Assembly (NCBI GenBank): GCA_944363035.1 | Contig: CALVTS010000004.1 | Span: forward strand, 601 to 64,600 | Direction of reading: 5' to 3' | Origin: an uncultured Clostridia bacterium | GTDB lineage: Bacteria > Bacillota > Clostridia > Christensenellales > CAG-917 | DNA: 64,000 nucleotides | Shown: piece by piece, positions 42,205-61,507 of the stretch | How the letters are laid out: each line of letters begins with the position of its first letter | Position numbering within the stretch: position 1 is the stretch's first letter | Program-made: the position numbers and the translations under genes | Notes under the pieces: model-generated | Database searches by the model: none | What the model was told of the DNA's origin: nothing | The model's input: only the letters and a program-made list of their open reading frames with translations

Positions 42205-42364
42205 GTTGTCTTTGAGAGCAGGGAAGGGGCGCAAAGGGCTTTTTTAGGGAAAAGAGAGGGTATTAAAGCGTCTATTTATATTCAAAACGCTTGCGGGCGC
42301 GTCCGCGTGTGTGTATAATAGTCATACTATTGTAATCAATCCGTCAAACCTTTTCGGAGTGTAT

Positions 42365-44647
42365 ATGAAAAAAAGAATCGCAATTTTGTTGGTCCTCATA
42401 ATCGCGCTGTTCGTATGCGTCGGCGCGCTTGCGGGTTGCAACTCCATCATCGTGCTCAACGAGGACAGGGACGCCAATCAGGTGGTCGCCTCCGTGAGCT
42501 ACGAAGGGCAGACCTACAACATCCGCAAGTTCGAGTTGGAGCTCAGTTTCAATTCCTACGCTTATGTGTACCACACCTACTACGGCATGAGCTATCAGGA
42601 GGTGGCGGACTATCTGTTGCAATCCCTCGCCCAGCGTGAACTGCTCGTGCTGTTCGCCAAGGCGGAGCTTGTGGAACTTGCGGGTCTCGACGCCGCTCCT
42701 GCGGACGTCACCGTGAAGCAACTGCTCTCGGAAAGCGAGCGCGACCGCGCGGTGAAGAATGTCAACGAGGACGTCCTTTCCGCGATAAATTCCGCCGTGG
42801 AGTCCCTCATCGGCGCGAACAACGGCTCTTCCTCCGGCTCTTCGGACAAGGAAGAGTATGAGGAATACAACGGCAAGGACGCCATCACCGTCCTCTTCGA
42901 CTCTCAGGGCGGCAGCGCGGTCGAGCGTCAGCGCATAAAGAGCGGCACCACCGCTTTCGAGCCCGACGATCCCACCCGCGACGGCTACACCTTCTACGGC
43001 TGGTACACCGATCCCGAGTGCACCGAAAAGTTCGATTTCGCCACCGAACTCACCCAAAAGACCACGCTCTACGCCAAATGGGCGGAGTATCTCGAGCCCC
43101 GTCCCGTGCGCGAAGCCGAGGAGGAGGATCCCGACGCGGATTACGATCCCGACGCCTCTCTTCCCGAGGCGGATCGCGCTCCCCGCGCTTTCGACGGCGA
43201 GGATAAGCTCACTGCGGAGTACCGCAAGCTCATCATGAGCGGCGAGGTCGAGCTGGATTGCCTTTCCGCCTACTCCGAAGACAAGAGAGCGGAGTATCTC
43301 GACTTGTACCTCGACGACGCGGCGGAGGATGTCGCAAACGACTTTGCCGAGCTCCGCACCGGCTACGATTACTATCTCGACAACGAGATGAAGACCCTCC
43401 TCATCACCAGATTGGAGCGCAAGCTCGGCGAGAGCTCTTCCGTCACCGAGGCGGAGGTGCAGGCGCGCTTCGACAAGATGGTGGAGGACAACCGCGAGAC
43501 TTACGGCGGCAACCGCACCTCCTATGAGTCCGCGCTCACAGACGCGCTCGCCTCTTCCTACTATCACGAATACAAGGATTACGGGTTCGTCATCAACATC
43601 CTTCTCCGTCTGCCCGACGAGGATCTCGCCGTGCTCACCGAGATGGTGGAGGACGGGGTGTATGCCGACGGCGTCATAGAGAAAAAACGCGACGCCCTCC
43701 TCAAAGAGATGGAGATCCACGTCAGCAATCCCGACTACGATCCCGAATATACCTGCGACAAGCATCCTTGCGAAGCGGGCTCCGATTGCGATCCCATGAC
43801 CTGCCCCGAACACGAGTGCGTCGGCACCGTGAACGAGGGCGCGGATTGGAACAACATCGTGGAGTTCGTCTACAACAAGGAGACCGGTGAGGCGGAGATC
43901 AGATACAACGTCACCGCCTGCCCCTCCATGGCGTATCTGCCCGGCACCGTTCCCGCCTTCTCGGACGGCGAGCAGACGGGCATAGTGGAGCAGATCTATC
44001 AAAGTTTCGAAAAGGTCACCCAAGCCGTAAGCGACGGGATGTCCCGCGTGCTCGGAGTCTACTGGATGCGCGAGCTCGCCACCGCCTGGCTCTATCTCGT
44101 AGGAGATGACGAGGGCGGCACCACTTCGAGCTCCAACAACGGCGGGCTCGGATATATGATCACGCCCGAGGGCACGGATTCCGGCTACATCGACGCTTTC
44201 ACCGATCAGGCGCGCGCGCTCGTCAAGCAGGGCACAGGCTCCTACACCACGGGCGGGTTCGAGGAGTCCTACGTCTTCGGCGACAGCTTTATCGAGTCGG
44301 GTTCCACAAGCGGCGCATATGCCGGCATTTTCATCCTCGTCGCGACCTCCGTGCCGTATGACGACAGCCTCCTCGGCGTCGTCGAAAACGAGGACGGCAG
44401 CTATTCCGAGATCACTCTCGGTTACTCCGCCACCCCCGACGTGCTCCCCCTCGATTATGTCATAGAGTACGGTCCCACCCTCGAGGATTGCGTCACCATC
44501 CGTATGCAGATCGAGGAGACCCTCCTCTCCGGCAAACAAGCCGCCGTCTATGAGGAGACCGTCAACGCCTTCGGCGTCAAACACTTCGAGTCAAACATCT
44601 CCTATAATAGGGGGGCGTATGAGTCGTTGTGGGAGGACCTGGACTAA
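42365..44647 (+). CDS. Large PrsA/SurA-like foldase lipoprotein with inserted Listeria-Bacteroides repeat domain
   Basis: ATG at 42365 gives MKKRIAILLVLIIALFVCVGALAGC (lipobox). SurA_N-like N-terminus. ITVLFDSQGG...GYTFYGWYTDPECTEKFDF repeat. Degenerate parvulin-like GGLGYM...AFTDQARAL...AGIFILV near the C-terminus. Confidence 0.6.
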   Translation: MKKRIAILLVLIIALFVCVGALAGCNSIIVLNEDRDANQVVASVSYEGQTYNIRKFELELSFNSYAYVYHTYYGMSYQEVADYLLQSLAQRELLVLFAKAELVELAGLDAAPADVTVKQLLSESERDRAVKNVNEDVLSAINSAVESLIGANNGSSSGSSDKEEYEEYNGKDAITVLFDSQGGSAVERQRIKSGTTAFEPDDPTRDGYTFYGWYTDPECTEKFDFATELTQKTTLYAKWAEYLEPRPVREAEEEDPDADYDPDASLPEADRAPRAFDGEDKLTAEYRKLIMSGEVELDCLSAYSEDKRAEYLDLYLDDAAEDVANDFAELRTGYDYYLDNEMKTLLITRLERKLGESSSVTEAEVQARFDKMVEDNRETYGGNRTSYESALTDALASSYYHEYKDYGFVINILLRLPDEDLAVLTEMVEDGVYADGVIEKKRDALLKEMEIHVSNPDYDPEYTCDKHPCEAGSDCDPMTCPEHECVGTVNEGADWNNIVEFVYNKETGEAEIRYNVTACPSMAYLPGTVPAFSDGEQTGIVEQIYQSFEKVTQAVSDGMSRVLGVYWMRELATAWLYLVGDDEGGTTSSSNNGGLGYMITPEGTDSGYIDAFTDQARALVKQGTGSYTTGGFEESYVFGDSFIESGSTSGAYAGIFILVATSVPYDDSLLGVVENEDGSYSEITLGYSATPDVLPLDYVIEYGPTLEDCVTIRMQIEETLLSGKQAAVYEETVNAFGVKHFESNISYNRGAYESLWEDLD

Positions 44648-44769
44648 AACGCCGTCATTTGGCGAATAGCTTTGTCAAAGCCTCTGCCGTAGATGCTCAC
44701 TTACGATCAAGTAAGCTCCGCCTCTCGGCAGAGGCTTTTTCGCGCTCTTCATCCAAATGGCGACGTTTT
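44646..44769 (+). repeat. Module H1a: long hairpin starting inside the upstream stop codon
   Basis: Arms AAAACGCCGTCATTTGG (44646-44662) and CCAAATGGCGACGTTTT (44753-44769). Inner terminator-like hairpin GCCTCTGCCG...CGGCAGAGGC plus TTTTT (44680-44740). Confidence 0.7.
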
Positions 44770-44867
44770 CACCATACGAGCGTTCGGGTGAGGGTATCTC
44801 CTAACCCGTCGTACACTTATTCGGAGTGTGTTTGACTCCTACCTATACGCATTCGAAGACGGTCTCG

Positions 44868-44929
44868 CGCGCCGCTCAGCCAAACTTGCACAGCGGGCGT
44901 TTGCGCCCGCTCTTGCAAGTCGCGGCGCG
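44868..44929 (+). other. Module M copy 1: three-tier hairpin
   Basis: CGCGCCGC-tcagccaa-ACTTGCA-ca-GCGGGCG-tttg-CGCCCGC-tct-TGCAAGT-c-GCGGCGCG. Confidence 0.7.
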
Positions 44930-45177
44930 TATCTGCGACCTCGCAAGCTAGACGAATAATTAAGTAGACACGGGCTCGGTGCGCGTCGAGTCGCCCTCCT
45001 CGCCCCGCGAGCGACGTTCAGTCTATACTGGTATCCGCTTGATTATGTGAGTGCGAAACTCAAACCTTTTTCAAGAGGTGTTTTCATAAAGGCGCGGTTT
45101 GCGCCTTTATGAAAAAGTATATCCCGCATTTTAGGAGGACAGTCCTCTATTTCGAGTGGGGGAGGAGTCCCGAAGGG

Positions 45178-45230
45178 GAGGAGGGGGTACAATATTACCA
45201 TGTAAGGGGACGTAAACTCCATTTAATCAG
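45178..45230 (+). repeat. Module T copy 1 (tail module)
   Basis: GAGGAGGGGGTACAATATTACCATGTAAGGGGACGTAAACTCCATTTAATCAG. ~90% identical to the reverse complement of 51315-51367. Confidence 0.7.
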
Positions 45231-45557
45231 CCTGAATACGACGTGAACTTATTCAGAGCGTCCCTGAACCCGACGAATAAGTGTGCGTGGGGTTCAATCT
45301 AATTTAATTTGGGGGGTTACGTTCCCGCGACAGGGAAGTATTGTTGCCCCCTTCCTGCGGGTTTCCCCCAAAATCGTTCCCCCTTAAAAGGGAACCCACC
45401 ATTTTGGGGGAAACCTTCGGCGCTCGGGCATGAGGGCTACCGAGGACGGCGCCTCTGCGGCGCCGCCATGTTATGCCGCTTGCAATGCGCCCGCTTCGCG
45501 AAGAGAATGGCGCATTGCCGGCGCACTTTTCGTCTCGCCCTCGGCACTCACTTCGTC

Positions 45558-45607
45558 GCCGCCGACTTGCAAGAGGGCTACGCCCTGTGCAAGTTTGGCT
45601 AGGCGGC
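45558..45607 (-). other. Module M copy 2 (inverted orientation)
   Basis: Minus strand: GCCGCC-tagccaa-ACTTGCA-ca-GGGC-gta-GCCC-tct-TGCAAGT-c-GGCGGC. Confidence 0.65.
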
Positions 45608-45775
45608 TCCACTCCGAATAAGTTCACGTTGGGTTCAAACACACCCCGAATGAGTATACGTGGGAGTTCAAACACACCCCAAAGAGTTCACGTGGGAATC
45701 AAGCACGTTCCGAATAAATGTACGTAAAGTTCAAACACGCCCCAAATAAGTATACGTGGGAATCAAACGAGCATT

Positions 45776-46807
45776 TTATTTCTGCGGCTTGTTTGTGTCG
45801 GTTTTTTTGCGTTTGGGTTTTATGCGGAGCAACAATCCCTCGCGGGTGTGTTTGCGCAAAAAGGCGCGTATGCCGAACATCGCTTCGCGGGAGATGCGCA
45901 GGGCTTGCACCACCGCAAAGGCGTGCACCGCGAGCTTGCCCGTGCCGTGATAGTGTTCCACCTCCACGCCCAGGGAGCGCAGTTTTTCCACGAGGTCGAA
46001 AGTGAGTATGGCGAGGGCGTCGTACTGCGCCGAGATGGCGAATGTGGGCGGGAAATCCTTGGTGACGTGGTATATGGGCGAGATCTCGTTTTTTTCCTCT
46101 TCGGTGAGCTCGTCGAAGGGTTTTCCCCCGCAGTATGACTGGACGTAAAGTTCTATGTTGCGGAAGGGGAGCCCTATGGCTTTTTCCAGGTCGAAGACGC
46201 CGCAGTTGAGCACGAGTCCCGCGATCTTCTGGTGCCGACTTACGGGATCGAGGTCGAAGCGCGCGTTGTATTCGGGGTCGGATGAGATCGCGCCCGCCAT
46301 TGCCGAGAGATGCGCGCCCGCGGATTCGCCGCCCACAAATATGGCGTCCGTGTCGATGTTGTACTATTCGGCGTGCTGTTTGAGCCAGGCGAACGCCTTG
46401 TATATGTTGCGTATGGGCTCCGGATGGGGATAAAAAGGGGAGTGCCCGTAATAGAGGCTGACCACGAAGTATCCCGCCTCCGCGATGCGGGTGTTGAACG
46501 CCTCCCTCGTTTCCGGAAGCCCGCCTATCCAGCCGCCGCCGTGTATATAGACGAAGACGGGAGCCTTGATTTCGGGGTCTCTGTCCTTGCGCTGATAGAT
46601 GTTGAGATAGAGCCTTTCATTGTCGGGCGCGTAGCGCACGAACCTTGTCACGTCCACATTTATGGAGCGTTTGGCGTTGAACACGGTGAGGAATCCCAGC
46701 AGCTCGTTTTTGGCGTGTCCGGTGCGGACGTATGCGAATTTGACGTCGTAGAAGAGCTTTTCCTGAAACGCCTTCATGTCGTCGAGGGAGAATTTTTTTC
46801 TTTTCAT
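45776..46807 (-). pseudogene. Alpha/beta-hydrolase fold-3 esterase/lipase interrupted by one in-frame TAG
   Basis: Track ORFs 46364..46807 (HGGGW oxyanion motif VYIHGGGWIGG) and 45776..46336 (nucleophile elbow GGESAGA) are in the same frame, separated only by TAG at 46364-46366 (..AWLKQHAE*YNIDTDAIFVGGESAG..). Confidence 0.7.
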
Positions 46808-46847: not shown

Positions 46848-47627
46848 TTATTCCGCTTCGGTATAGAAATTTTTCCAGTCGGAGAGATTTTTCTCTGTCA
46901 CGCCGTACTCGGCGGCGAGGAAGTCCTCTATGCGCGGATATTTGTCGAATATGGACTTGTATGCGATGTCGAAGAGCTCCTCATGCACCCGCGAGGAATA
47001 CTCCACCACCTCGTAAAGTTCCTTGCGCAGGGGGAATTTGTGCATTATTTTCAGGATCTTGGAGTTGGAATTGGCGCGCAGGATGTTGGAGCGCAGATAT
47101 TCCTCCTTCGCCTGTTCCCGCGTTCTGCCCAGCGCGAGCTCTATCATCATGGCGGCGACGCCCGTCCTGTCCTTGCCCGCCGTGCAGTGGAATGCCACCG
47201 TCTTCCCCTCGTTCAGCCTGTCGAAGAGGAGCTTGTACGCGGGGCGCGCATAGGGCATATAAGCGTAGGAATCGCGGATGCCTTGCAATATCTCCCCGAA
47301 TTGTTCGTCGGAGCAGAAGAGCAGGGCGAGTTTTGTGCGGTTGGTGGGCGCGAGCACCTGAAATTTGGTGTCGCCGAAGACGGACGCGTTGACATATTCC
47401 ACTCCGAGGGGGAGCTCGTCGGGTTTTTCCTTGACCTCGCGGGGGACTCTGAGGTCCACCACGCAATCCAGCTTCAATCCGTCGAGGAAAACTTTGTCCT
47501 CTTCCGTCTTGGGTTTGAGGCGGCAGGTGCGGAAGATCTTTCCCTCTTTTATCCTGCCTCCCTGCGGGAGAGGGAGACCGCCCAGGTCTCTGAAATTGGA
47601 AAATGTCACGTTTGCGGGAATGTCCAT
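46848..47627 (-). CDS. Protein-tyrosine phosphatase-like protein (Y_phosphatase3 type)
   Basis: CX5R active-site loop HCTAGKDRTG. 259 aa. Confidence 0.8.
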   Translation of the reverse strand: MDIPANVTFSNFRDLGGLPLPQGGRIKEGKIFRTCRLKPKTEEDKVFLDGLKLDCVVDLRVPREVKEKPDELPLGVEYVNASVFGDTKFQVLAPTNRTKLALLFCSDEQFGEILQGIRDSYAYMPYARPAYKLLFDRLNEGKTVAFHCTAGKDRTGVAAMMIELALGRTREQAKEEYLRSNILRANSNSKILKIMHKFPLRKELYEVVEYSSRVHEELFDIAYKSIFDKYPRIEDFLAAEYGVTEKNLSDWKNFYTEAE

Positions 47628-47695
47628 ATCACGATTATATCAACATCCCGTCCGACGCGCAACAAACGCGCGGGATGTTTTTTCATTCCGAAGCG

Positions 47696-49003
47696 TCATA
47701 TCGCGAGCATGACCGCGAGCCCTCCGAGAGCGGCGGCAAGCGAGGGCAGGGTGATGAGCGCGCCCTTTTTCACAAAGTCGAAAAAGCGGAAATCCACCTT
47801 CTTGTGCTTGACTATGGACAGCCACATCATCGCGGACATGGAAGCCACCGGGGTAAGGAGGGACCCCATGTTGGAGCCTATCACGGTGGCGAACACCGCG
47901 GGCATGAGATTGGGCTCGGACACCGAGGAGAGTATCCCCACAAAGAACATACTCATCGGGAGGTTGTTCATCAGATTGCTCGCACCTGCCGACAACGCGC
48001 CGAAAGATATCATGGAGAGGTCGTTGTCAAAGACACCCGCGATCTTGTCGGTGACGCCGTTGTTCATGAGCGCCAGCACTACCACGAACATGGAAATGAG
48101 AAATGGCACCAGATGCCAGGGCATCCGCTTCGCCGTCTTTTTGAGGGGATGCAGGGATTGCTTTTTGGCAAGCAGGCATATCACCGCGCCCACCATGACC
48201 GCTCCCGCCGAACACAGGCACACTATCCACATATCCAGCCCTATGTAGGAGGAGATGATGAGCAGCACCGTGCACACGCCAAGCCCCGTCACTCCGACCA
48301 CGAGGGCGGGGACGTTTCTTATGGTCACTTCGAGTTCGCTCGCCTGCAAAGGGGCTTTCAGGCTTTTGCGGAATATCAGGAAGAGGAGCGCAAAGGACGT
48401 GACTGCGGCAAATATCGTGGGCAGAGCCATCATCCTCACGTATTCCATGAATCCCACCCCGAAGTAGGTGGCGATATACACGTTGGTGGTGTTGCCGATT
48501 ATCAGGAACATACTCCACGTGTTCGCGGCGACGTAGGTCATGAACACGAAGGGTATGGGATCGATGTTGCTGTTTTTGGCAAAATAGCAGATGAAGGGCG
48601 TGAATGTGAGCACGATGGTGCTGTTGGAGGTGAAGATGGTCACCGCCGAGATGATGAGATAGAGCAGGATGAACAGCTTCACCTGACTGGTGCCCGCGTG
48701 CTTCATCACCTTGGTTGCGAGCAACTTGAAAAAGCCCACCTTGTCCAGATATACGCTCATCGCGCTCATGGAAAGGAAGATGGCGAGTGTCTTCAACGGG
48801 TTCATGTCCGAATCGCCGAAGAACTGTTCCTCAAGCTGTCCGAGAGGGACCTCCCCCGTCGCTACGAGCACGATGGCGCAGACGAATGGCACCACCCAGT
48901 AGATGCGTATGCGCACTTTGCCGATGCGGGCTTTCGCGCCGAACGCGGTAGCCAGCACGACGCTGAGACAGGACAGACAGAGCATGGACACCGACAGAGC
49001 CAT
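47696..49003 (-). CDS. ArsB/NhaD-superfamily permease (anion/citrate-transporter-like)
   Basis: 435 aa, ~10-12 TM. GGAGG RBS. General similarity to ArsB/YbiR-type permeases. Confidence 0.7.
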   Translation of the reverse strand: MALSVSMLCLSCLSVVLATAFGAKARIGKVRIRIYWVVPFVCAIVLVATGEVPLGQLEEQFFGDSDMNPLKTLAIFLSMSAMSVYLDKVGFFKLLATKVMKHAGTSQVKLFILLYLIISAVTIFTSNSTIVLTFTPFICYFAKNSNIDPIPFVFMTYVAANTWSMFLIIGNTTNVYIATYFGVGFMEYVRMMALPTIFAAVTSFALLFLIFRKSLKAPLQASELEVTIRNVPALVVGVTGLGVCTVLLIISSYIGLDMWIVCLCSAGAVMVGAVICLLAKKQSLHPLKKTAKRMPWHLVPFLISMFVVVLALMNNGVTDKIAGVFDNDLSMISFGALSAGASNLMNNLPMSMFFVGILSSVSEPNLMPAVFATVIGSNMGSLLTPVASMSAMMWLSIVKHKKVDFRFFDFVKKGALITLPSLAAALGGLAVMLAI

Positions 49004-49139
49004 ATACGCACCTCCTTTTCTAATTTGAGAGGATACATAATATACTTAAATCGTACGGAAATCAACCGAATGCGGAAAAATTGTAAAAAATTTGTAAAAA
49101 TTTTTTACACCGTGCACCTCCCGCATTGCGGGACGGGGG

Positions 49140-49169
49140 TTGACAAAACTCCGCCCCCGAGACTACAAT
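49140..49169 (+). promoter_or_regulatory. Sigma-A-type promoter for the 49328 permease gene
   Basis: TTGACA (49140-49145), 18-nt spacer, TACAAT (49164-49169). Leaves a leader of ~150 nt. Confidence 0.6.
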
Positions 49170-49327
49170 CTTCTTGTGCCGCGGCGGCGCTTGCCCCCGC
49201 GTACTCCCGTCCGAGGGGGCGGAAAAGCTCGTCCGAAAATGCGGGAAAGTCCGGCGGACAAAGCCGTCGGGGACGTGGGATGAGAACGGCGCGCAAGGGC
49301 GTTGTTGCACGAAACGGAGGTTTAAGG

Positions 49328-50605
49328 GTGAAAATTGCGGCGTTAGTATTGTTTTTTGTCACTTACGTGCTTTTGTTGGCGTTGCCGAAATTCAGGTCGT
49401 ACATCGCCGCGTTCGTGGGAGTCCTCTTCCTTTGCCTCAACATCCTGCCTTGGCAGGAATTTGCCACCGCGATAGACTGGAACGTGCTCATGATTATCGC
49501 GGGCACCATGGGCATAGTCGCCCTGTTCATAGAATCCAAGATGCCGGCTCTGCTTGCCGATCTGCTCATCGCGCGTATGCCCAACGTCAAGTGGGCGATC
49601 ATCGCTCTCTCTCTGTTCGCGGGATTGGTGAGCGCGTTCGTGGACAACGTGGCGACGGTGCTGATGGTCGCGCCCATCGCGCTCAGCCTCTCCAAAAAGC
49701 TGGATATATCTCCCGTGCCCGGCATCATCGCCATCGCCGTTGCGTCCAACTTGCAGGGCGCGGCGACCCTCGTCGGCGACACCACCTCCATAATGCTCGG
49801 GAGCGCCACGGGCATGAGCTTCATAGATTTCTTTGTGATGGACGGCAAGATGGGTATGTTCTGGATAGTCCAGATCGCCGCTCTCGCCGCCACCGTATAT
49901 CTCCTCTTCGTCTTCCGCAAGGACAAGCAGAAGATAGAGTACACCGAGCGCACCGAGGTCAAGGACTTCTTCCCCTCCTTTCTCCTCATCGCGATGCTCG
50001 CCCTCCTCATCGGCACCTCCTTTGTCGCCGACAAGCCCGATGTCACTCCCGGCATCATCTGCGTCGGTCTCATGGTCGTCGGCATGATATACACCGTCAT
50101 CCGCCGCAAGGACTTTTCGGGGGTCAAAAACACCCTGAAAGAGATAGATTTCAAGACCTTGCTCCTCCTTGCGGGGATATTCCTCATCATCGGAGGGCTG
50201 GATTCCGTCGGCATCATCGACGACATCGCCGATATCCTCGTCAAGGCGAGCGGCGGCAACATCTTCGCGTTGTACTCCCTCCTCGTGTGGGCGTCCGTGC
50301 TCGTCTCTGCTTTCATCGACAACATCCCCTACGTCGCCACGATGCTGCCCGTCATAGCGGGCATAGCCACAGGCATGGGATTGGGCGCGGGGGAGAGCAT
50401 GGTGCTCTATCTCGGTCTGCTCTCGGGCGCCACTCTCGGCGGCAATCTCACCCCCATCGGTGCCTCCGCCAACATCACCGCCACCGGCATCCTCCGCAAA
50501 GAAGGCTACGAAGTCAAGACCCTCCAATACATGAAGATCAGCGTCCCCTTCACTCTGATAGCCGTATTGGTGGGGTATGGGTTGGTGTGGCTCGTCTACT
50601 CCTAA
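49328..50605 (+). CDS. ArsB/NhaD-superfamily permease
   Basis: C-terminal part of track ORF 47603..50605. GTG at 49328, 8 nt after GGAGG, gives (M)KIAALVLFFVTYVLL. FVDNVATVLMVAPIA and NLQGAATLVGDTTSIMLG motifs. Confidence 0.75.
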   Translation: MKIAALVLFFVTYVLLLALPKFRSYIAAFVGVLFLCLNILPWQEFATAIDWNVLMIIAGTMGIVALFIESKMPALLADLLIARMPNVKWAIIALSLFAGLVSAFVDNVATVLMVAPIALSLSKKLDISPVPGIIAIAVASNLQGAATLVGDTTSIMLGSATGMSFIDFFVMDGKMGMFWIVQIAALAATVYLLFVFRKDKQKIEYTERTEVKDFFPSFLLIAMLALLIGTSFVADKPDVTPGIICVGLMVVGMIYTVIRRKDFSGVKNTLKEIDFKTLLLLAGIFLIIGGLDSVGIIDDIADILVKASGGNIFALYSLLVWASVLVSAFIDNIPYVATMLPVIAGIATGMGLGAGESMVLYLGLLSGATLGGNLTPIGASANITATGILRKEGYEVKTLQYMKISVPFTLIAVLVGYGLVWLVYS

Positions 50606-50727
50606 AACGCCGCCATTTTGTGTGATACTGCGTCAGACGCCCTGCCACGATTGCTCACGTACGGAAAGTACGCCGCGCACCCGTGGACAGGGCATCTTCC
50701 TTGTCTGACGCAAAATGGCGGCGTTTT
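50604..50727 (+). repeat. Module H1b: long hairpin starting inside the upstream stop codon
   Basis: Perfect 17-nt arms AAAACGCCGCCATTTTG (50604-50620) and CAAAATGGCGGCGTTTT (50711-50727). Second tier GCGTCAGAC/GTCTGACGC. Interior unrelated to H1a. Confidence 0.7.
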
Positions 50728-50857
50728 CACCATACGAGCGTTTGGGCGAGGATATCTCCCAACCCATCGTACCATTGTTCGGTGTGTGCTTGAACTTCAC
50801 GTACACTTATTCGGAGTGTATTTTAATCTCACAAATACCCATTCGGAGACGGAACTA

Positions 50858-50915
50858 CGCGCCGCTCAGCCAAGCGTTCACAGGCGGCGTGCCGCCTCTT
50901 GAACGCCGCGGCGCG
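50858..50915 (+). other. Module M copy 3: three-tier hairpin
   Basis: CGCGCCGC-tcagccaa-GCGTTCA-ca-GGCGGC-gt-GCCGCC-tct-TGAACGC-c-GCGGCGCG. Confidence 0.7.
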
Positions 50916-51314
50916 CCCCCTGAGTGCCGAGCAACGCCGTAAACCTAAAAAGACACGGGCTTTAACTTGCGAGCGCCGAATTCCTCCTCCCGTGCCGGGC
51001 TTTCAGCAAGTGCAGGTCTCCGCTTGATTATGTGAGTGCGATATAAAAAACTTTTGTAGGAATGCGAAGTCAGTCCCGCATGATGCGGGGACTGAACTCG
51101 TTCGGACACGGGGGAGGAAAGCCCGCAGGGAAGGAGGGGGAGCCAACATTCACCCGCGAGACGTATAGCATGAGAGAGCGTGCTTGAACACGACGAATAA
51201 GTGTGTGTGGGATTCAGGCACACTTCGAATAAGTGCATGTGGGAGTCAAACACACCCCGAATGAGTATACGTGGGGTTCAAACGAGCACCGAAAGAGTGT
51301 GCGGCGTGCCCAAA

Positions 51315-51367
51315 CTAATTTAATGGAGTTTACGTCCCCTAACATGGAAGTATTGTACCCCCTCCTC
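51315..51367 (-). repeat. Module T copy 4 (inverted relative to copy 1)
   Basis: Minus strand: GAGGAGGGGGTACAATACTTCCATGTTAGGGGACGTAAACTCCATTAAATTAG. Confidence 0.7.
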
Positions 51368-51514
51368 ACTATACCCCACAAAATCACCTTTGGTGATGTT
51401 TGCGGAGACCTCGGACGCGCCGCTCAGCCAAGCGTGGTTTCATCTTCGAATGAGTGTGCGTTGAGTTCAAAGCAAAAGGAGCTCCGCTCTGTGCGAAAGT
51501 CCTTTTTTGCTTGC

Positions 51515-51541
51515 AAAAAAGCCGCTCTTTCGAGCGGCTTT
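51515..51541. terminator. Bidirectional intrinsic terminator (serves the minus-strand MFS gene)
   Basis: AAAAAA-GCCGCTC-tttc-GAGCGGC-TTT. Confidence 0.75.
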
Positions 51542-51560
51542 CGTGCTTTTGCGGGGGAGA

Positions 51561-53633
51561 TCAGTTGTCCAGCGATTCGAGGCGGATCTGTCTCTTTTCC
51601 TCTTTGGTGAGTTTCTTGCCCTTTCCGATGGGCTTGCTGTCGCCGTGCTTGACGAAGAGCATGAGCACTATGGAGAGGAACACGAATATCGCGCTGTAAA
51701 CGAACAGACCTTTGCTTGAGATGTTGTCCATGACCATGCCCGCGAACATGGGGGTGACCGCCTGGGCGGACATGGTGGCGACGTAGTAGTAGCCGGTGTA
51801 CTGACCCACCGTGGAATCGGTGGAGAGCTCCACCACCATGGGGAGGGTGTTGACGTTGATGATGATGAGCCCGAAGCCGGAGACGAGATAGAAGAGCGCG
51901 AAGAGCGCGGCGGGCACCATCTCGTTGGAGTCGGGTTTGACGACGATGAAGATGAGCAGGAAGCTCACCACCGCAAGGGCGAGACCTATCATGATGGTCT
52001 TGCGTCTGCCGAGCTTTGCCGCCATATATCCCACGGGGATGAACGCGATGGCGCTGAAGCCCATGCTGACGCCCGAGATGATGGACGCGATGCCCGCGTC
52101 AAGTCCCAGCGTCTTGGTGGTGTAGATGGAGAGGTTGCTGGACACCGCGTTGTAGCCCATGAACCACATGAATATGGAGCCGAGGATGAGCAGGAAGCTG
52201 ACAAAGCGGGACCTTTCCTCCTTGGACTTATCATTCCACCAATCCTTGGGAGTACGGTGTTTTTTGCCGCTGCTCTCCGAGACGATGAAGGGCTCGGGGG
52301 CGAGGAAGGGGTCTTCCTCCGCCACGGCGGCCGCTCCGTGCATGGGACGCATGGCCGCGTCGCAGTCCACGACGCTCTCGTCGGGAGAGACCGCGATGGC
52401 TTCCGTCTCCTCGTCGTCATCCGTGATGCCGTATTCTTCGCAGATCTCGTGGCAACGCTTGACCATCTTCTTTTCGCGCACGAGCGCGAGGAATCCCGCA
52501 AGCAACAAGAGCATCCCTGCCGCGACGGAGGAGAAGATGATGACGTAATTTTCCAGCCTCTCGCCGAAGAGCACGACGGTGTAGATGAGGAAGGCTATCG
52601 CGCCGCCCACGCCGCCGCAGAGGTTGATGACCGCATTGCCCTGAGAGCGCAGGGGCTTGGGAGTGACATCGGGCATGAGCGCGACGGCAGGGGAGCGGAA
52701 GGTCGCCATCGCGATGAGCACCAGAAGGAGGATGACCATATATACGGCTATGCTGGCGTGCCCTTCGGGGGTGTCGGTGACATTCACGTAGACCTGCTCG
52801 CTTATCCAGGTGTTCATGCCGGTGTCCACGTATTTGTTGTAATTGTCGTTGCCCGTCTTGATGTCGGCAAAGGTGATCTTGCCGTCGCCGTTCCAGTCAT
52901 AGCCGCCGGCTTCTTCGGGGACGACGTCCTCCAGAGCGACCTCCTCGCCTTTATAGGTGTAGGTCTCGGCGCCAAGCATACCGAGTATGGCTTTTGTGGC
53001 TTTGAAGTCGCCGTTGTAGCGGATCTCGAGGTATTCCTCGGCAGTTATGCCCTGACCTTCGTTGAGGTATTCGCCGAGGACGTAACCCTTGTCGCAGTAA
53101 TTGAGGTCGTTGCTGTTCCAGAAATACTCCAACCTTTCGGACATGAAAGCGTCGTCATTGAGCTGAGCGGTGAATTTCGCCTCGATGTTCATCGCTTTTT
53201 CCTGTTGACCTAGGGTGGAGATGGGGACGAATATCATCAGCACGACGGACGCCAGAGTGCCGATCACGATGAAAGGCGTGCGTCTGCCGAATTTGCGCAC
53301 CAATCTGCCGTGCGCGTTGTCCGAGAGTTTGCCGAAGAGGGGCAACATGAAGAGGGAGAGCAGATTGTCCAATCCCATGATGAGCCCTCGGATGGTGTTG
53401 TTCAGACCGTAAGCGTGTTCCAGAAGCAGAGGCACCACAAAGTCGTATGCCGTCCAGAAGATCATGATGATGGCGAATGCGAAACCGACTTTGAATGTCT
53501 GAGCGTAATCCAGCCTCAGCGGTTTTTTCGGAGCATCGTCTCCGCCGCCCTCCGTGACGAGATCGGGCTGCAAAGCGCCCTCGTCGGCGGCAAGCTCCGC
53601 GCTGTCCGCGACGCCGTTGAGTTTGTCGTCCAT
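51561..53633 (-). CDS. MFS/GPH-type transporter (690 aa) with two large loop insertions
   Basis: AAGGAGG RBS. MFS_2-like N-terminus (GLDNLLSLFMLPLFGKLSD..GRRTPFI). ~150-aa extracytoplasmic insert containing DWNGDGKITFAD. ~100-aa acidic central loop. Confidence 0.75.
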   Translation of the reverse strand: MDDKLNGVADSAELAADEGALQPDLVTEGGGDDAPKKPLRLDYAQTFKVGFAFAIIMIFWTAYDFVVPLLLEHAYGLNNTIRGLIMGLDNLLSLFMLPLFGKLSDNAHGRLVRKFGRRTPFIVIGTLASVVLMIFVPISTLGQQEKAMNIEAKFTAQLNDDAFMSERLEYFWNSNDLNYCDKGYVLGEYLNEGQGITAEEYLEIRYNGDFKATKAILGMLGAETYTYKGEEVALEDVVPEEAGGYDWNGDGKITFADIKTGNDNYNKYVDTGMNTWISEQVYVNVTDTPEGHASIAVYMVILLLVLIAMATFRSPAVALMPDVTPKPLRSQGNAVINLCGGVGGAIAFLIYTVVLFGERLENYVIIFSSVAAGMLLLLAGFLALVREKKMVKRCHEICEEYGITDDDEETEAIAVSPDESVVDCDAAMRPMHGAAAVAEEDPFLAPEPFIVSESSGKKHRTPKDWWNDKSKEERSRFVSFLLILGSIFMWFMGYNAVSSNLSIYTTKTLGLDAGIASIISGVSMGFSAIAFIPVGYMAAKLGRRKTIMIGLALAVVSFLLIFIVVKPDSNEMVPAALFALFYLVSGFGLIIINVNTLPMVVELSTDSTVGQYTGYYYVATMSAQAVTPMFAGMVMDNISSKGLFVYSAIFVFLSIVLMLFVKHGDSKPIGKGKKLTKEEKRQIRLESLDN

Positions 53634-53708
53634 AGATATCCTCCTTACCTGCGGCGCGCCTCGTCTCGGAAAACAGACAAAAAAGCGACGCGCGTATCAT
53701 ATGTGAAC

Positions 53709-53737
53709 ATTATACAGTAGATACACTTGTCTGTAAA
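53709..53737 (-). promoter_or_regulatory. Sigma-A-type promoter for the MFS gene
   Basis: Minus strand TTTACA, 17 nt, TATAAT. Confidence 0.6.
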
Positions 53738-53778
53738 GACTTTAACTTTTTCCCGAAGCCAAAATTAAAGATAATACG

Positions 53779-53812
53779 AAAAAAAACGCCCCGCGTCTGC
53801 GGAGCGTTTTTT
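53779..53812 (-). terminator. Intrinsic terminator after the zinc-ribbon membrane protein gene
   Basis: Minus strand CGCTCCGC-agac-GCGGGGCG followed by a T-run. Confidence 0.7.
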
Positions 53813-53824
53813 GACCTGTTACGT

Positions 53825-54694
53825 TCATGCGTGTTTCTTTTTCAGGCTCTTCAGGAAGATGAGGGAGAAGAACACGTGCAAGAGCCCTATCACCGCGGGA
53901 GCCAGAAGCAGGAATCTCATCCCGTTGATCACATATTCCATGAAGTATCCGCCTATGCCGCCCTCAAATTCCCAACCCAACAGGATGGGCCGGAAGAGGA
54001 TGCACAGAGACACCGCGAGCAGTCCGAGCGCCAGGATGAGATGTATCAGCCTGGGGTACTTCTTCACGATGAAGCCTATGAGCGCGAGCGCCGCGACGAC
54101 CAAAGTGAGAAGGAAGAAGATGATGGGCAACACCTCGAGCAGACCGTCGGCAACGCTTTCCTCGAAAACGGCTTTGAGATATTCCGCAGATCCGGTTTCC
54201 TCGTCGGCGAGAGTCTCGAGCATCCCGACGCCGTCAAAGGAGCCGAGGGCGAAGAGGAAGTCGCCTGCGGTGAGTTCCTCGGCGTTTTCGCCAAAGACGT
54301 CTTCAAGCGTACCGCCGCCCTGGTCGGCATAAAAATGACCGAGCAACGAGCAAACCAAAAGCAGAGCGGCGAAGATGAAGATCATCACGTTCCTGCTCCT
54401 GCCGGATTTCTTGGCGGGGCGTGCGACAGCCGCGCTCTGTTCCGCCGCGGTCGCGGGGACTGCGACAGCCGCGCCCGCGTTGTAGACGGGTTCGGAGGGA
54501 GCGGCATAGGGATTTGCGGGAGTGAAGGTGGGTTGCACCTGCGCGATGGAGGTGGGATTCGGCAACTTCACGCCGATCGTCACGCCGCAGCTCGGGCACT
54601 TGATCCTGTGCTTGTAGCCGTCGGGCAGATTTGCTGCGTTGGCAGGAGGCTGAAAACAGATTTCGGCTCTGCAACTCGGACATCTGGTGTACAT
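53825..54694 (-). CDS. Zinc-ribbon (MJ0042-type) N-terminal domain fused to a ~4-TM membrane domain (unknown function)
   Basis: MYTRCPSCRAEICF...KCPSCGVTIGVKLP, Pro/Ala-rich linker, then hydrophobic segments. AAGGAG RBS. Confidence 0.7.
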   Translation of the reverse strand: MYTRCPSCRAEICFQPPANAANLPDGYKHRIKCPSCGVTIGVKLPNPTSIAQVQPTFTPANPYAAPSEPVYNAGAAVAVPATAAEQSAAVARPAKKSGRSRNVMIFIFAALLLVCSLLGHFYADQGGGTLEDVFGENAEELTAGDFLFALGSFDGVGMLETLADEETGSAEYLKAVFEESVADGLLEVLPIIFFLLTLVVAALALIGFIVKKYPRLIHLILALGLLAVSLCILFRPILLGWEFEGGIGGYFMEYVINGMRFLLLAPAVIGLLHVFFSLIFLKSLKKKHA

Positions 54695-54790
54695 AGCTTT
54701 CTCCTTTCAAAGATATTATACACGCACATTATAAATGGATATGCGGATAAAGTCAAATGCAATCCGTTTTATTTTCAGGCGCTTTTCATG

Positions 54791-54819
54791 TTGCAACACA
54801 TGGTCGGATATGATACAAT
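54791..54819 (+). promoter_or_regulatory. Sigma-A-type promoter driving the cobalamin riboswitch
   Basis: TTGCAA (54791-54796), 17 nt, TACAAT (54814-54819). Confidence 0.65.
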
Positions 54820-54825
54820 CCACTT

Positions 54826-55045
54826 GCCTCGGGTGCGGCGAAAGCCGATAAACGGGAAGTCGGGTGAAGATCCCGCACAGCCCCCGCTACTGTAAGGTGA
54901 AACGGAGCACGCCATTCCTGTATGCAGGGAGAAGGCGCCGCGGCGCGAGCCGACCGAAGTCAGGAGACCGGCCCGAGAGCGTCAAGCAGTTGTTTCGGTG
55001 GGAGACGACGGCGTGTTTCGCCTTGCCTTCCGCAGAAAACGGGAG
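54826..55045 (+). promoter_or_regulatory. Cobalamin (B12) riboswitch
   Basis: Core GGGAAGTCGGGTGAAGATCCCGCACAGCCCCCGCTACTGTAA and B12 box GAAGTCAGGAGACCGGCC. CCTCGGG...CCCGAG closing pair. Expression platform runs into the GGGAGG RBS. Confidence 0.85.
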
Positions 55046-55053
55046 GTTTTTTT

Positions 55054-55506
55054 ATGAAACGTACGCTCAACGGCAAGTGCATCGCGATCGCGCTCGTCCT
55101 GCTTTTCGCGCTCTTCGGCGCATTGGCGTTTGTCGCCTGCGACGCCCCGGACGGCGACGAGAGGGGGGAGCTTTCCTCCGTCACGCTCATTCTGGGGGAC
55201 GGGGAGGCGGTCTCCTTCGAGACGGACGCGAAATATCTTTACGGCGCGCTCTCGGACTATTGCGATGACCACGGGCTCGTCCTGGAAGGGGAGGAGAGCG
55301 AATACGGGTTTTTCCTCACCCGCGTAGGCGACCTCGTGCAGGGTGAGGGCAGATACATCATGGTGTATCACGACATCGACGACGTCGCGCTCATCACCCC
55401 CGGCTACGACCGCGAACAGGGCGGGAAGGTCTTTCATTCCTCCGCGCAGGGAGTCTCATCCCTGCCTGTCATGGACGGAGCCTCTTATCTGATAGTTTTG
55501 CAATAA
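55054..55506 (+). CDS. DUF4430-like secreted lipoprotein (transcobalamin-like fold family), B12-riboswitch controlled
   Basis: MKRTLNGKCIAIALVLLFALFGALAFVAC lipobox. ~150 aa. First gene after the riboswitch. Confidence 0.65.
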   Translation: MKRTLNGKCIAIALVLLFALFGALAFVACDAPDGDERGELSSVTLILGDGEAVSFETDAKYLYGALSDYCDDHGLVLEGEESEYGFFLTRVGDLVQGEGRYIMVYHDIDDVALITPGYDREQGGKVFHSSAQGVSSLPVMDGASYLIVLQ

Positions 55507-55530
55507 AAGCTGTTTTTATGTCGATATCGT

Positions 55531-56163
55531 ATGTCTGAACCGCTGTTTTCGCAAAAAATCCCCGAAAACGAGAGCGTGTCCTCTGAGAGGGCGCGCGTCT
55601 CGTCGGCGGGGAAAGGCAGGCTCGCGGCGGCGTATGTGGCGAGAGTGGCGGTGATGTCCGCGATGCTCACCGCGCTCAAATTCGCGCTGTCCTTCGTCCC
55701 CAACGTGGAGGTGGTCACCCTGCTCGTCATGGTGTACGCCGCGGCGTTCGGGGCGGCTTACGCCCTGCCCGCGACGGTGATCTTCTGCGCCGTGGAGACC
55801 GCGATATACGGCGCGGGGAGCTGGGTCGTCCTCTACTTCGTCTACTGGCCATTGCTCGCCCTGTTGTCCTGCTTGGCGTTCGGCAAGCTCCGCAGGCTCT
55901 CTCTTTGGCTCTCGCCCGCGGCGGCGGCGTTCGCGGCGGTGATGTCCGCGTTCTTCGGGGTGCTCTCGGCTTGTTGCGATACGCTGTACGTTGCCGTGGG
56001 GTTCCCGGGGTTGGATCTTGCGGCGTATTGGACGGCGTACTATCTCAGAGGGCTGGCGTTCGACGGGGTGCACATCCTCTCCAACGCGATAGTGGTCGGC
56101 GTGCTCTTTCTCCCTCTGCTTTCGGCGGGCAGGCGGATAAGGAGGGGGAGCGCGCGCGTCTGA
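55531..56163 (+). CDS. Putative ECF-transporter S component (CbrT-like by context)
   Basis: 210 aa, ~6 TM, small hydrophobic protein in a B12-riboswitch operon. An ecfA1A2T module is present at 25021-27573. Confidence 0.55.
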   Translation: MSEPLFSQKIPENESVSSERARVSSAGKGRLAAAYVARVAVMSAMLTALKFALSFVPNVEVVTLLVMVYAAAFGAAYALPATVIFCAVETAIYGAGSWVVLYFVYWPLLALLSCLAFGKLRRLSLWLSPAAAAFAAVMSAFFGVLSACCDTLYVAVGFPGLDLAAYWTAYYLRGLAFDGVHILSNAIVVGVLFLPLLSAGRRIRRGSARV

Positions 56164-56315
56164 GAGACGCGTCTTTTTTTCGGCTTTTTCCGTCAATATC
56201 CGCACGGCTCCCCGAAAAGTGTCGTCAAATCGCAACTTTTGGAGTCTTCGGACCTCTTTTGTCGTTTGTGTGAAACCCCTGTTGCAAGGTGATAGTATTT
56301 TGCGCGGAGGTAGTT

Positions 56316-56648
56316 ATGGCAAACATCAGACATCCCGATTGCGCGATAAGAAGTCTGGCGTCCGAAGCCAAGCGAAGACTGCGCGAGGGCGCTTATCAAA
56401 AGGAACTCGGCGGCGCTTTCCCGTACGGCGCGAGCCCCGCTCAGAAGAGGCTGTACATAAGGCTCAAAGAGCTTTTGGACAAGGGAGAGGAAGTGGTCAA
56501 TCCCATCCGTCAGCTCGCCGACGAGGAACTGCTTTCCCGCCTTTCCCACGCCGACAAACAACGCTACGTTTTCCAGCTCGCCGCGGATTACACCGCGATG
56601 AAGAGGGAATTGGACCATCGTCTTGCGACGGCGAGGGGGGAGCTGTGA
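56316..56648 (+). CDS. Hypothetical protein (110 aa)
   Basis: ATG at 56316 after GGAGG. Helical, charged. 3' end overlaps the convergent yabQ ORF. Confidence 0.45.
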   Translation: MANIRHPDCAIRSLASEAKRRLREGAYQKELGGAFPYGASPAQKRLYIRLKELLDKGEEVVNPIRQLADEELLSRLSHADKQRYVFQLAADYTAMKRELDHRLATARGEL

Positions 56649-56997
56649 ACCTTTTTGCGGCTTTCGAGAGGCGGGAGAGGAGAGAATCTTCCCTTTCGAG
56701 TTTTTTCGCGAGCTTTTCGGAGGCGAGCGCGGCGAGCCGCGAAAGGATATCCCTCACGATGAGAAGAGAGATAAGGAATGCGACGGCGCAGTAGAGCGCG
56801 GGTCTTCCGTTTGAGCCTGTTTCGGCAGAGAGCAGGAAGAGCAGGGTCACCGCCACGGTCGCGAAAAGATCCGCCGCGAAGCGGTGCAGGGGAGGGAGTT
56901 TTTTGACCGAGTAAAGGAAGGTGAGAGGCGCCGCCGCCCCTCCGAATCCCGCGGCAACGAGCGCGGCGAACAATTGCGCTCCCACCGACGCGGTCAT
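56497..56997 (-). CDS. yabQ: Spore cortex biosynthesis protein YabQ-like membrane protein
   Basis: ATGA overlap with the yabP stop. Three hydrophobic segments then a charged region. The last ~50 aa (Pro/Arg/Ser-rich) are of doubtful reality. Confidence 0.6.
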   Translation of the reverse strand: MTASVGAQLFAALVAAGFGGAAAPLTFLYSVKKLPPLHRFAADLFATVAVTLLFLLSAETGSNGRPALYCAVAFLISLLIVRDILSRLAALASEKLAKKLEREDSLLSRLSKAAKRFTAPPSPSQDDGPIPSSSRCNPRRAGKRSVVCRRGKGGKAVPRRRADGWD

Positions 56998-57272
56998 TTG
57001 AAGATGCGTTTTATCACGGAAGAGGGCTTCGCGCCCGTGGAATAGCGCATAGCGGTGACATATCCCGCCGCGCTCAGTCTGCCGCTGTCGAGGTCCAGCC
57101 CCTTGACCGCGAGGTCGTGTCCCGCGACGGCGAGGGTCTCCCCCTCGAGTTCTATCTCTATGAGCTTGTCCGTAAAAGTCGGGACGGCTTTCACTCCCGT
57201 GACGGTGAGGAGTCTGTGCTCGCTGAGTTGCAGGGAATGCGGCGAAGTTTTTTTGTTTGCGGCGTCGGACAT
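56994..57272 (-). CDS. yabP: Sporulation protein YabP
   Basis: 92 aa. LQLSEHRLLTVTGVKAVPTFTDKLIEIELEGETLAVAGHDL matches the YabP pattern. AAGGAG RBS. Confidence 0.8.
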   Translation of the reverse strand: MSDAANKKTSPHSLQLSEHRLLTVTGVKAVPTFTDKLIEIELEGETLAVAGHDLAVKGLDLDSGRLSAAGYVTAMRYSTGAKPSSVIKRIFK

Positions 57273-57378
57273 ACGGATCTCCTTGGACGTGATACTGTTC
57301 AGTTATATGCCGCGCCCTCCTCTCTCATTCGCGCCGAGAGGGGATTCGATTGACAATCCTTCCGAAAAATAATAGAAT

Positions 57379-58678: not shown

Positions 58679-58747
58679 GACAGCTTCGGGGCAAAACGAC
58701 ACAAAAAGAGTTTTAACGACAAAAATCGACAGATAAACAGAGGCATT

Positions 58748-61497: not shown

Positions 61498-61507
61498 CGG
61501 GTCCATT

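Follow-up and report, generated by a model that had tools for sequence, protein, structure and literature searches.

The 64,000-nucleotide stretch of DNA analysed here (the window; contig CALVTS010000004.1, positions 601 to 64,600, assembly GCA_944363035.1, from an uncultured Clostridia bacterium of the Christensenellales lineage CAG-917) is ordinary chromosome, with pth, mfd and similar genes, and a tRNA search of it found none. Our subject is a locus within it, R2 (50604-51480), which comprises ~880 bases directly 3' of a permease gene of the CitMHS type (~49280-50605, plus strand) and faces a convergent MFS transporter gene (51561-53633, minus strand). Its sister locus R1 is 1.1 kb long and lies between a gene for a surface protein with Listeria-Bacteroides repeats (42311-44647, plus strand) and an alpha/beta hydrolase gene (45776-46336, minus strand). 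R2 is one intact unit (50604-51161) plus decayed pieces of two others, and our results support a model whereby it is probably an insertion-derived mosaic of lineage-specific repeats that spread as one oriented unit, that are co-transcribed and whose core is a new structured RNA. The parts of R2, in positions of the window, are the following.

49280-50605, plus strand: CitMHS-type permease gene (Pfam CitMHS); its TAA stop codon (50603-50605) ends the open reading frame (ORF).
50604-50727, plus strand: H1b, a 124-nt imperfect-palindrome hairpin whose basal stem begins in the stop codon.
50728-50772, plus strand: 45-nt block, a conserved junction after H1 and itself a degenerate sub-repeat; 88.9% identical to 44770-44814.
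50750-50845, minus strand: three 32-nt sub-repeat units in register, with 21, 28 and 22 of 32 consensus matches.
50834-51161, plus strand: core, type A, ~330 nt, multi-helix; nhmmer E = 2e-91 to the family profile.
50858-50915, plus strand: module M, the 5' hairpin domain of the core, with predicted helices 50858-50865/50908-50915 and 50874-50888/50891-50906.
50921-50978, plus strand: second domain, predicted helix 50921-50934/50967-50978 around the conserved AGACACGGGC (helix 5; 6 of 11 pairs compensated).
50981-51119, plus strand: predicted long-range helix UUCCUCCUCCCGUGCCGGG (50981-50999) / UCGGACACGGGGGAGGAA (51102-51119), which closes the central domain.
51019-51041, plus strand: 23-mer, a small hairpin with loop UUGAUUAU plus the 5' strand of helix GUGCG/CGCAU.
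51071-51094, plus strand: hairpin CAGUCCCGCA-uga-UGCGGGGACUG, from the sequence and the single-sequence fold; an alternative to or part of helices 9 and 11.
51110-51140, plus strand: G-box, a purine mirror repeat GGGGGAGGAA-AGCCCGCAGGG-AAGGAGGGGG whose left arm serves as the long-range helix's 3' strand.
51194-51321, plus strand: four forward 32-nt sub-repeat units, three strong and one weak (TRF, register scan).
51315-51367, minus strand: what is left, in inverted orientation, of another element's 3' end, with the right arm of the G-box and module T (nhmmer, module match).
About 51398-51435, plus strand: 5' remnant, in direct orientation, of a third core; it comprises the leader and the initial 21 nt of module M, the M part 100% identical to 50857-50877.
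51447-51478, plus strand: solitary forward sub-repeat (consensus match, register scan).
51482-51541: terminator-like hairpins closing the intergenic region (minus-strand site 51498-51482; plus-strand or bidirectional site 51518-51541).

The corresponding parts of R1 are these.

44645-45775: R1 as a whole, with the TAA stop codon at 44645-44647, hairpin H1a at 44647-44769 and the 45-nt block at 44770-44814.
44792-44855, minus strand, and 44847-45218, plus strand: sub-repeats and type A core, the core being of the R1 subtype with an extra 33-nt hairpin.
45298-45608, minus strand, then 45610-45774: type B core followed by five forward sub-repeats.

An earlier note on this DNA, drawn from the letters and a list of their ORFs, had described R2 as a member of the same modular family as R1, again placed between convergent genes, and direct reading of the sequence together with repeat finding bears this out. 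Repeat finding and blastn restrict similarity to R2 inside the 64 kb to R1 and R2 itself, and every module that the note named as common to both loci is present, at or a few bases from where it had been placed and far beyond chance; low-complexity GC hairpins do not account for the likeness. The 23-mer TCCGCTTGATTATGTGAGTGCGA, rightly read as identical in both loci, occurs exactly twice in the 64 kb (45034-45056 and 51019-51041) against 0 expected in shuffles, and the 24-nt sub-repeat consensus, allowing up to 3 mismatches, has five matches, all within R1 or R2, also against 0 expected. TRF reports period-32 arrays at 51194-51283 (2.8 copies) and 45610-45768, and the sub-repeats sit in exact 32-nt register, compared with 0-4 unphased matches per 20 kb of shuffled sequence. 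Both left borders read CTAAAACGCCG, the TAA triplets at 44645-44647 and 50603-50605 ending the upstream ORFs.

The internal arrangement differs in places from what the note had drawn. The 45-nt block carries 5 substitutions relative to R1, not 6 (88.9% of 45); a junction matching it is also present in locus L018 of the related DNA described below, and the block overlaps the in-register unit 50750-50781. Of the four reversed sub-repeats proposed, three are in register, and the first overlaps the block. These minus-orientation units (50750-50845) have the orientation always seen upstream of the core and form an inverted repeat with 51194-51278. The four forward sub-repeats were found as proposed. 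Of the truncated inverted copy said to follow them, 51315-51367 is indeed inverted (75% complementary to 45178-45279, a minus-strand nhmmer match to profile positions 303-344, T module 88%), whereas the M fragment (51415-51435) and the sub-repeat at 51447-51478 are in direct orientation. The head-to-head pair of convergent copies read into both loci therefore gives way in R2 to one full unit, a 53-nt inverted 3' remnant, a direct 5' remnant and a direct sub-repeat. In R1 the inverted second element is of type B and has only the 5' hairpin and the 3' G-rich end in common with the first. Type B is a paralogous ~310-nt element with a different middle from type A, which includes a perfect hairpin GGTTTCCCCCAAAAT...ATTTTGGGGGAAACC; the two types have the 5' hairpin, a GAGTGCCGAG stretch and the 3' G-rich end in common. 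The type B copy of R1 is 92% identical to one in the genome CALVKQ01, further copies lie in L006 (4252-4615) and L019 (13572-13846), and a third core variant, type C, has only the 3' end in common.

The view that the ~880 nt hold no credible ORF also stands. They lack 3-base codon periodicity, internal ORFs have no Pfam match, the longest antisense ORF has one weak database relative, and open frames in the 3' half arise from T-poor composition; we therefore rejected a coding sequence.

The family was sought with the exact 20-mer CCGCTTGATTATGTGAGTGC in one genome per species and in metagenome contigs. The genome scan returned 14 loci, 13 of them family loci in three genomes and one a chance match: ten in CALVKQ01, a metagenome-assembled genome (MAG) of an uncultured Clostridia bacterium, two in Candidatus Limadaptatus stercoravium (Eubacteriales incertae sedis) and one in another Clostridia MAG. 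Five of the six metagenome contigs matched are also family members. The window's own genome is not among the scanned family loci; CALVKQ01 is ~81% identical to the window in mfd DNA. A profile search of these loci found 23 near-full-length type A cores, 11 of them in CALVKQ01, with pairwise identities of 59-97% and three subfamilies. R2 and R1 thus belong to a multi-copy, lineage-specific interspersed repeat family. Nothing similar was found in the viral contigs, plasmids and phage genomes searched, on which ground a phage or plasmid origin was rejected, and no known repeat or RNA family matches; we found no description of the family in the literature.

We observed that orthologous loci (same upstream gene end) are occupied in different species by different core subtypes (L009 versus L018; R1 versus L002), which implies module reassortment or repeated replacement at the same sites. 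L018 itself combines an R2-like H1 (96% identical) with an R1-like core (93%). Hairpin inserts of ~40-45 nt and of the GGGG(T/A)CCCC type are nested in H1 loops and core copies (L005 6311-6356; L014 ~3078-3173; L004, L013, L016 and L019 after AGCCAAG; L013 and L019 inside the G-box loop; L020), indicating that small repeats are still being layered in these genomes. Some cores are followed by a module GTGGGGGTATAATACCCCCA, a hairpin with a TATAAT hexamer (L009 ~7850-7885; L011 ~6890-6925; L021 ~705-740).

Comparison with relatives gives the insertion status of both loci. The permease has many orthologues (the database holds a 441-amino-acid protein that is 100% identical over its full length, and the protein cluster counts 366 sequences from public assemblies), and five relatives (L022-L028; permease 84-89% identical) have the same gene order as the window. 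Their gaps measure 78-230 nt between the surface-protein and hydrolase genes and ~105-195 nt between the permease and the next gene, and each holds a simple bidirectional terminator and nothing else; R1 and R2 are therefore insertions that expanded short terminator spacers. Presence is polymorphic: L022-L028 are empty at both sites, while the window, L002, L021 and L029 are filled, CALVKQ01 carrying H1 and a core at the orthologous R1 site (L002) and L021 and L029 carrying H1 copies directly after the permease stop. As a side observation, the terminator of the empty R1 site, AAAAACGCCGTCCCGCGGGACGGCGTTTT (L022 1133-1161; L025 6440-6472), has the 11-mer AAAACGCCGTC in common with the outer arm of H1a (44648-44658 and 44759-44769), which could reflect terminator mimicry or the derivation of H1 arms from the resident terminator.

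R2 lies at the left edge of ~10.9 kb (50620-61500) that has no counterpart between the permease and UPRTase genes of L022-L028; an ancestral-looking terminator is kept at 61464-61497, next to the UPRTase gene. Besides R2, the block contains the MFS transporter gene, ORFs without assignment, a riboswitch, an AlaRS-like protein (58748-60529) and a PHP-domain protein (60310-61353). The riboswitch is a cobalamin aptamer (54814-54990, plus strand, 93.9 bits, E = 4.8e-22), which sister species lack along with the block, and the ORFs after it (54922-55506 and others) have no Pfam match. L029 has another gene set after the permease, and together with the 10.9-kb block this marks the permease 3' end as a variable hot spot. 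Upstream, the 1000-amino-acid ORF listed mechanically at 47603-50605 is artefactual: two divergent permease genes of the CitMHS type occupy this region (47696-49003, minus strand, and ~49280-50605, plus strand), arranged as in annotated relatives.

Across species the parts follow a conserved order, in which the stop codon of a co-oriented gene is followed by 1-4 tandem H1 copies, 2-5 sub-repeats of 32 nt and the core. H1 is upstream of and co-oriented with the core in 14 of the 15 loci that have both, and the junction after H1 is conserved within genomes. Judged by eye from a mafft flank alignment, and unquantified, the arrays of sub-repeats to either side of the CALVKQ01 cores appear to run in the same direction. 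Their inversion in the window is therefore no defining terminal repeat, and we rejected the sub-repeats as terminal inverted repeats of the core, which has no such repeats. The genes upstream of copies are unrelated in function (permease, surface protein, PTS EIIC, rubrerythrin). An all-versus-all ORF comparison of 14 loci revealed no recurrent neighbouring protein; what it returned was either a spurious ORF within the repeats or an orthologous flank. In L019, two inverted copies are separated by 10 kb of ordinary genes, and no transposase, Y1 or RAYT gene was seen in ~250 kb fetched around copies.

The hairpin that opens the unit, H1, is strongly structured. H1b folds with -69.4 kcal/mol (z = -8.9), the AA of the TAA pairing with the 3' UUUU in the basal stem. 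Among 33 H1 matches in fetched related DNA, 20 full-length copies were aligned (alignment A4) and describe a rod-like hairpin of 41 pairs, 27 of them compensated, with 89.8% of cells paired, against 38-51% for slid partners; in the inner stem the sequence is hypervariable while the pairing persists. G-U and A-C cells are balanced (24 versus 21), which indicates no strand preference. The earlier note had placed the left border at a stop codon, and the rule extends to related genomes: in 16 of 17 arrays the first H1 starts at the stop codon of the upstream frame, with the last stop base at H1 position 0 or +1 (-4 in L004); wherever the fetched locus extends far enough, that frame runs open for 198 codons or more. 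In L021 and L029 a change of TAA to TGA is matched by TTA to TCA in the opposite arm. Orthologous proteins end at the same residue with or without H1, and H1 therefore sits on the native stop and does not truncate the gene. Either the element targets stops or harmless insertions alone have survived.

H1 ends read TAAA(C/G)CGC...GCG(C/G)TTTA, with inverted termini of 17-20 nt. TA...TA flanks are possible at the H1 copies of CALVKQ01 and L020, yet are indistinguishable from the palindrome itself, and neither the TGA-type copies (L021, L029) nor the right borders of H1 in the window have them; an IS630-like TA target fits the CALVKQ01 flanks (C-TA...TA-G) and not the TGA-type copies. The window copies end 3' in GGCGGCGUUUU with 4 U, against 3 U in those of CALVKQ01 and none in L021 and L029; a terminator scan did not call H1 as a terminator.

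Size, a variable paired centre, stop overlap and tandem arrays are general hallmarks of chromosomal attC sites, for example Vibrio repeats. H1, an imperfect palindrome of 123-125 nt whose ends are conserved and whose centre is hypervariable but paired, overlaps the stop codon of the preceding ORF and forms tandem arrays of 2-4 in CALVKQ01, and its arrays might on these grounds be read as integron-like attC sites in a cluster without integrase, with the remainder as cassette-like cargo. The H1 end motifs largely refute attC identity (GCTAAAC/GTTTAGC, TAAAAC/GTTTTCA and CCTGAC/GTCAGG versus the core sites RYYYAAC/GTTRRRY). With syntenic housekeeping genes rather than cassettes preceding H1, no integrase among the called genes of L021-L029, and H1 balanced between strands, we regard this reading as scarcely credible.

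Another reading is that of an element made of DNA only, in which H1 and core would be single-stranded DNA structures for a trans-encoded HUH (Y1) enzyme, derived from IS200/IS605 or REPIN/RAYT-like, that inserts 3' of a short target N-T-A/G-A, stop codons included, and needs no RNA function. On their left, first H1 copies are consistently flanked by T(A/G)A (N-T-(A/G)-A in 16 of 17), the hypervariable and compensated stems are as expected of an enzyme that reads shape, and the core lacks terminal inverted repeats or a clear target duplication. On the other hand, a GTAG or CGTC tag is found at H1 ends without consistency, neither a Y1 nor a RAYT gene was seen in any fetched locus, H1 itself is a symmetric palindrome, and the two L019 copies 10 kb apart are oppositely oriented, against a strict lagging-strand bias (n = 2). 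We consider a DNA-only element the main rival, a possible but rather unlikely explanation, and the core, described next, bears on it in both directions.

The structure of the core was tested on a cleaned alignment of 21 sequences and 345 columns (A3), a second alignment (A2) comprising 22 copies. RNAalifold gives a multi-domain fold of the 22 copies with compensatory changes in several independent helices. In the A3 structure of 92 pairs, 92.2% of cells are standard-paired versus 41-60% with partners slid by 1-3 columns, 24 pairs are changed on both sides versus 5-14 in slid controls, and the covariation score is 0.247 versus at most 0.122 in controls; 0 of 500 shuffles reach the observed values. 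The best-supported helices are 50874-50888/50891-50906 (helix 4, the inner helix of module M, with 7 of 14 pairs compensated, e.g. UA to GC in 7 sequences), 50921-50934/50967-50978, the long-range helix 50981-50999/51102-51119 (helix 7; 18 pairs, 4 compensated, 91% paired) and 51036-51043/51074-51081. Helix 10 is invariant, and pair 212:249 of helix 11 is GC in 11 sequences and AU in 10. The 23-mer, with whose end CCCGCAU pairs in the family structure, has 19 of 23 columns invariant over the 22 A2 copies and a 20-nt core unchanged in 20 (L019b and L021 differ), and its UUGAUUAU loop is conserved in 20 of 21 A3 copies. The G-box is nearly invariant among copies, and the R1 subtype and type B also preserve its mirror symmetry. 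The unpaired UUGAUUAU loop, AGACACGGGC and the G-box are near-invariant in copies that are just 60-70% identical. 

The structure is also asymmetric between strands. G-U cells outnumber A-C cells (223 versus 30), which points to the strand running in the sense of the upstream gene as the structured one; on the opposite strand the mirror structure would be just 82% paired, and the reverse-complement consensus fold is less favourable. Searched at the gathering threshold, Rfam 15 matches the cobalamin riboswitch only in the whole window; R2 and R1, at E up to 10 and 5, have just sub-threshold chance matches to terminator-like or miRNA models, and four related loci have none. On this comparative evidence we take the core to be a candidate for a new structured RNA, not in Rfam. 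A strand-specific structure with many G-T pairs would also be expected of single-stranded DNA, but nested helices spanning more than 100 nt and the invariance of the unpaired UUGAUUAU, AGACACGGGC and G-box are more typical of a folded RNA, which is why we favour the latter as the structured molecule.

G-boxes lie at 51110-51140, 45158-45187 and 45339-45362 (minus strand). The pyrimidine tract, left arm and right arm read UUCCUCC(G)CCC, GGGGGAGGAA and AAGGAGGGGG in subtype 1, CUCCUC(G)CCCC, GGGGGAGGAG and GAGGAGGGGG in subtype 2, and UUUCCCCC, GGGGGAAA and AAGGGGG in subtype 3. The joint change of tract and arms in the three subtypes hints weakly, from two independent changes, at a purine-motif triple-helix geometry.

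An ornate, strand-specific structure in many copies, with an invariant core, variable 3' flanks and subtypes A, B and C that are alike at their ends and different in the middle, recalls RNAs that guide an enzyme. The core could be an orphan scaffold for a nuclease or recombinase encoded elsewhere, following the logic of omega-RNA or bridge RNA, its copies mostly without an ORF, like those of HEARO until IscB was understood. We hold this to be very unlikely, given that 0 of ~25 copies adjoin a candidate enzyme, that the Rfam models HEARO and IS605-orfB have no match at E up to 10 and that the 3' flanks, instead of being unique guides, sort into a small number of recurring classes.

How the unit might be expressed is suggested by its position. 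A consensus scan found no promoter within R2, candidate hexamers near the 23-mer being wrongly spaced, and the sole good terminator (51518-51541) is downstream of the unit; read-through transcription from the permease gene is therefore most likely. In our model, read-through would give the permease mRNA a long structured 3' extension, within which the core may act as an RNA, either needed for the spread or persistence of the element or exapted by the host. H1 would be an ERIC/REPIN-like hairpin module that tolerates or exploits its stop-codon position. Going by the known footprint of the ribosome, termination at 50603-50605 would require the H1 base to be opened, and hairpin formation would thereby be coupled to translation. 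It is tempting to speculate further that the unit of H1, sub-repeats and core is an RNA-centred selfish element that homes to stop codons and rides host transcripts, its RNA being catalytic or guiding a trans-acting enzyme, with a possible purine-motif triple helix between the mirror-repeat G-box and the upstream pyrimidine tract; we regard this extended version as distinctly unlikely.

Because copies are always downstream of and co-oriented with a gene and upstream of a terminator, have sequence blocks conserved at 60-70% overall identity and fill the same sites in different species, a host-domesticated regulatory RNA was also considered. It would be a 3'-untranslated-region small RNA or RNA-protein scaffold, spread by recombination and no longer mobile, with roles such as mRNA stabilisation, a protein sponge through the GGA/GGAGG-rich G-box or insulation of convergent transcription; ERIC-type hairpins are reported to influence mRNA stability (PMC2229807). 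The truncated, nested fragments in the right third of R2, the small hairpin inserts within copies, the variable presence among close relatives and the functionally unrelated upstream genes, which point to selfish spread rather than a regulon, make such domestication improbable. Persistence of filled orthologous sites across species is, for its part, also what the DNA-only element would lead one to expect, as has been reported of REPINs (bioRxiv 10.1101/2021.07.10.451892).

Several points weigh against our preferred model of a co-transcribed, mobile unit with an RNA core. The structure was predicted on the same alignment and strand on which it was scored, which inflates the percentage paired and the G-U excess. 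A single core sequence barely beats shuffles (z = -1.6 on the plus and -2.3 on the minus strand), so that the structure rests on covariation, and many compensations follow the three subfamily splits and thus represent few independent events. The mixing of modules in L018 makes 'one unit' only approximate, and orthologous sites filled with different core subtypes fit recombination or replacement as well as transposition. Transcription of the unit is deduced from position alone, and neither a transposase nor a target-site duplication nor exact element ends were established.

If the core is functional, it would add a class of large structured RNA, absent from Rfam, from a poorly studied lineage of gut Clostridia, and its many natural copies per genome are suited to structure determination. 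A hairpin that sits on stop codons would mean that a mobile element finds stops, or that only such insertions survive, and a stable stem around the stop codon could influence how translation terminates, how ribosomes are rescued and how the mRNA decays. Insertion hot spots are marked by the family as well, R2 being at the edge of the 10.9-kb block, and it may serve studies of genome plasticity in these organisms.

Altogether, R2 is best filed as an interspersed mosaic repeat carrying a new structured-RNA candidate, a more general description than the earlier note could give. Like miniature transposable elements with inverted repeats (MITEs), the elements are short, non-coding and multi-copy, and they show presence and absence at orthologous sites; around the core, the arrays of sub-repeats run inverted to each other in the window and apparently in the same direction in CALVKQ01. 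The closest analogy for the core is a mobile-element RNA of the HEARO type: HEARO/IscB omega-RNA and TnpB RNAs are, like the candidate core RNA, large, ornate and present in many copies per genome, and they spread with a mobile element and have conserved ends and subtypes. The core matches none of these Rfam models, however, no copy examined adjoins an ORF for IscB, TnpB or anything else, and its location is linked to host gene 3' ends. Class C group II introns insert behind terminator hairpins and point the same way as the gene before them. The core is likewise structured, downstream of a gene-3'-end hairpin and in the orientation of the upstream gene, but it is ~330 nt long, has no reverse transcriptase and is separated from the hairpin by sub-repeats. 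A group II intron was rejected for want of any Rfam Intron_gpII or group-II-D1D4 match (domain V/VI, D1-D4) at E up to 10. We also rejected a CRISPR array, the 32-nt units being contiguous without spacers or cas-like neighbours. Type III toxin-antitoxin loci of the ToxI-like type have tandem ~36-nt repeats directly upstream of the toxin ORF; here no ORF follows the arrays, which abut the core or the convergent gene, and this candidate too was set aside. Integron attC sites (123-126-nt Vibrio cholerae repeats) resemble H1 in length, paired variable centre, stop overlap and tandem arrays and differ in core-site motifs that H1 does not match, there being no cassettes, no integrase found and no strand asymmetry in H1.

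The mosaic arrangement resembles that of BIMEs. REP, REPIN and BIME elements are, like the R2 family, extragenic and often between convergent genes, with mosaics of several repeat modules whose order and orientation vary, long hairpins and persistence of sites across species. H1 differs in lacking a consistent GTAG/CGTC tag (CGTC occurs only in the right arms of L021 and L029), no REP-doublet substructure was demonstrated in H1 and no RAYT occurs in the DNA at hand; BIMEs, unlike R2, have no 330-nt element with long-range covarying helices. With ERIC/IRU (127-bp enterobacterial), Correia/NEMIS and RUP elements, H1 has in common its size class, an imperfect palindrome, many copies and a non-coding, probably transcribed extragenic place near gene 3' ends (PMC2229807). 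The termini of H1 in CALVKQ01 are, in this comparison, compatible with a TA target (C-TA...TA-G), and the TGA-type copies of L021 and L029 are without flanking TA. No sequence relation to these elements is known and their hosts belong to another phylum; H1 is further set apart by the stop codon in its terminus (16 of 17), its hypervariable compensated stem and its coupling to a 32-nt array and a 330-nt element. By analogy, H1 may work like the hairpin MITEs ERIC/IRU, Correia and RUP and like REPINs, without their tags and with a stop-codon rule of its own.

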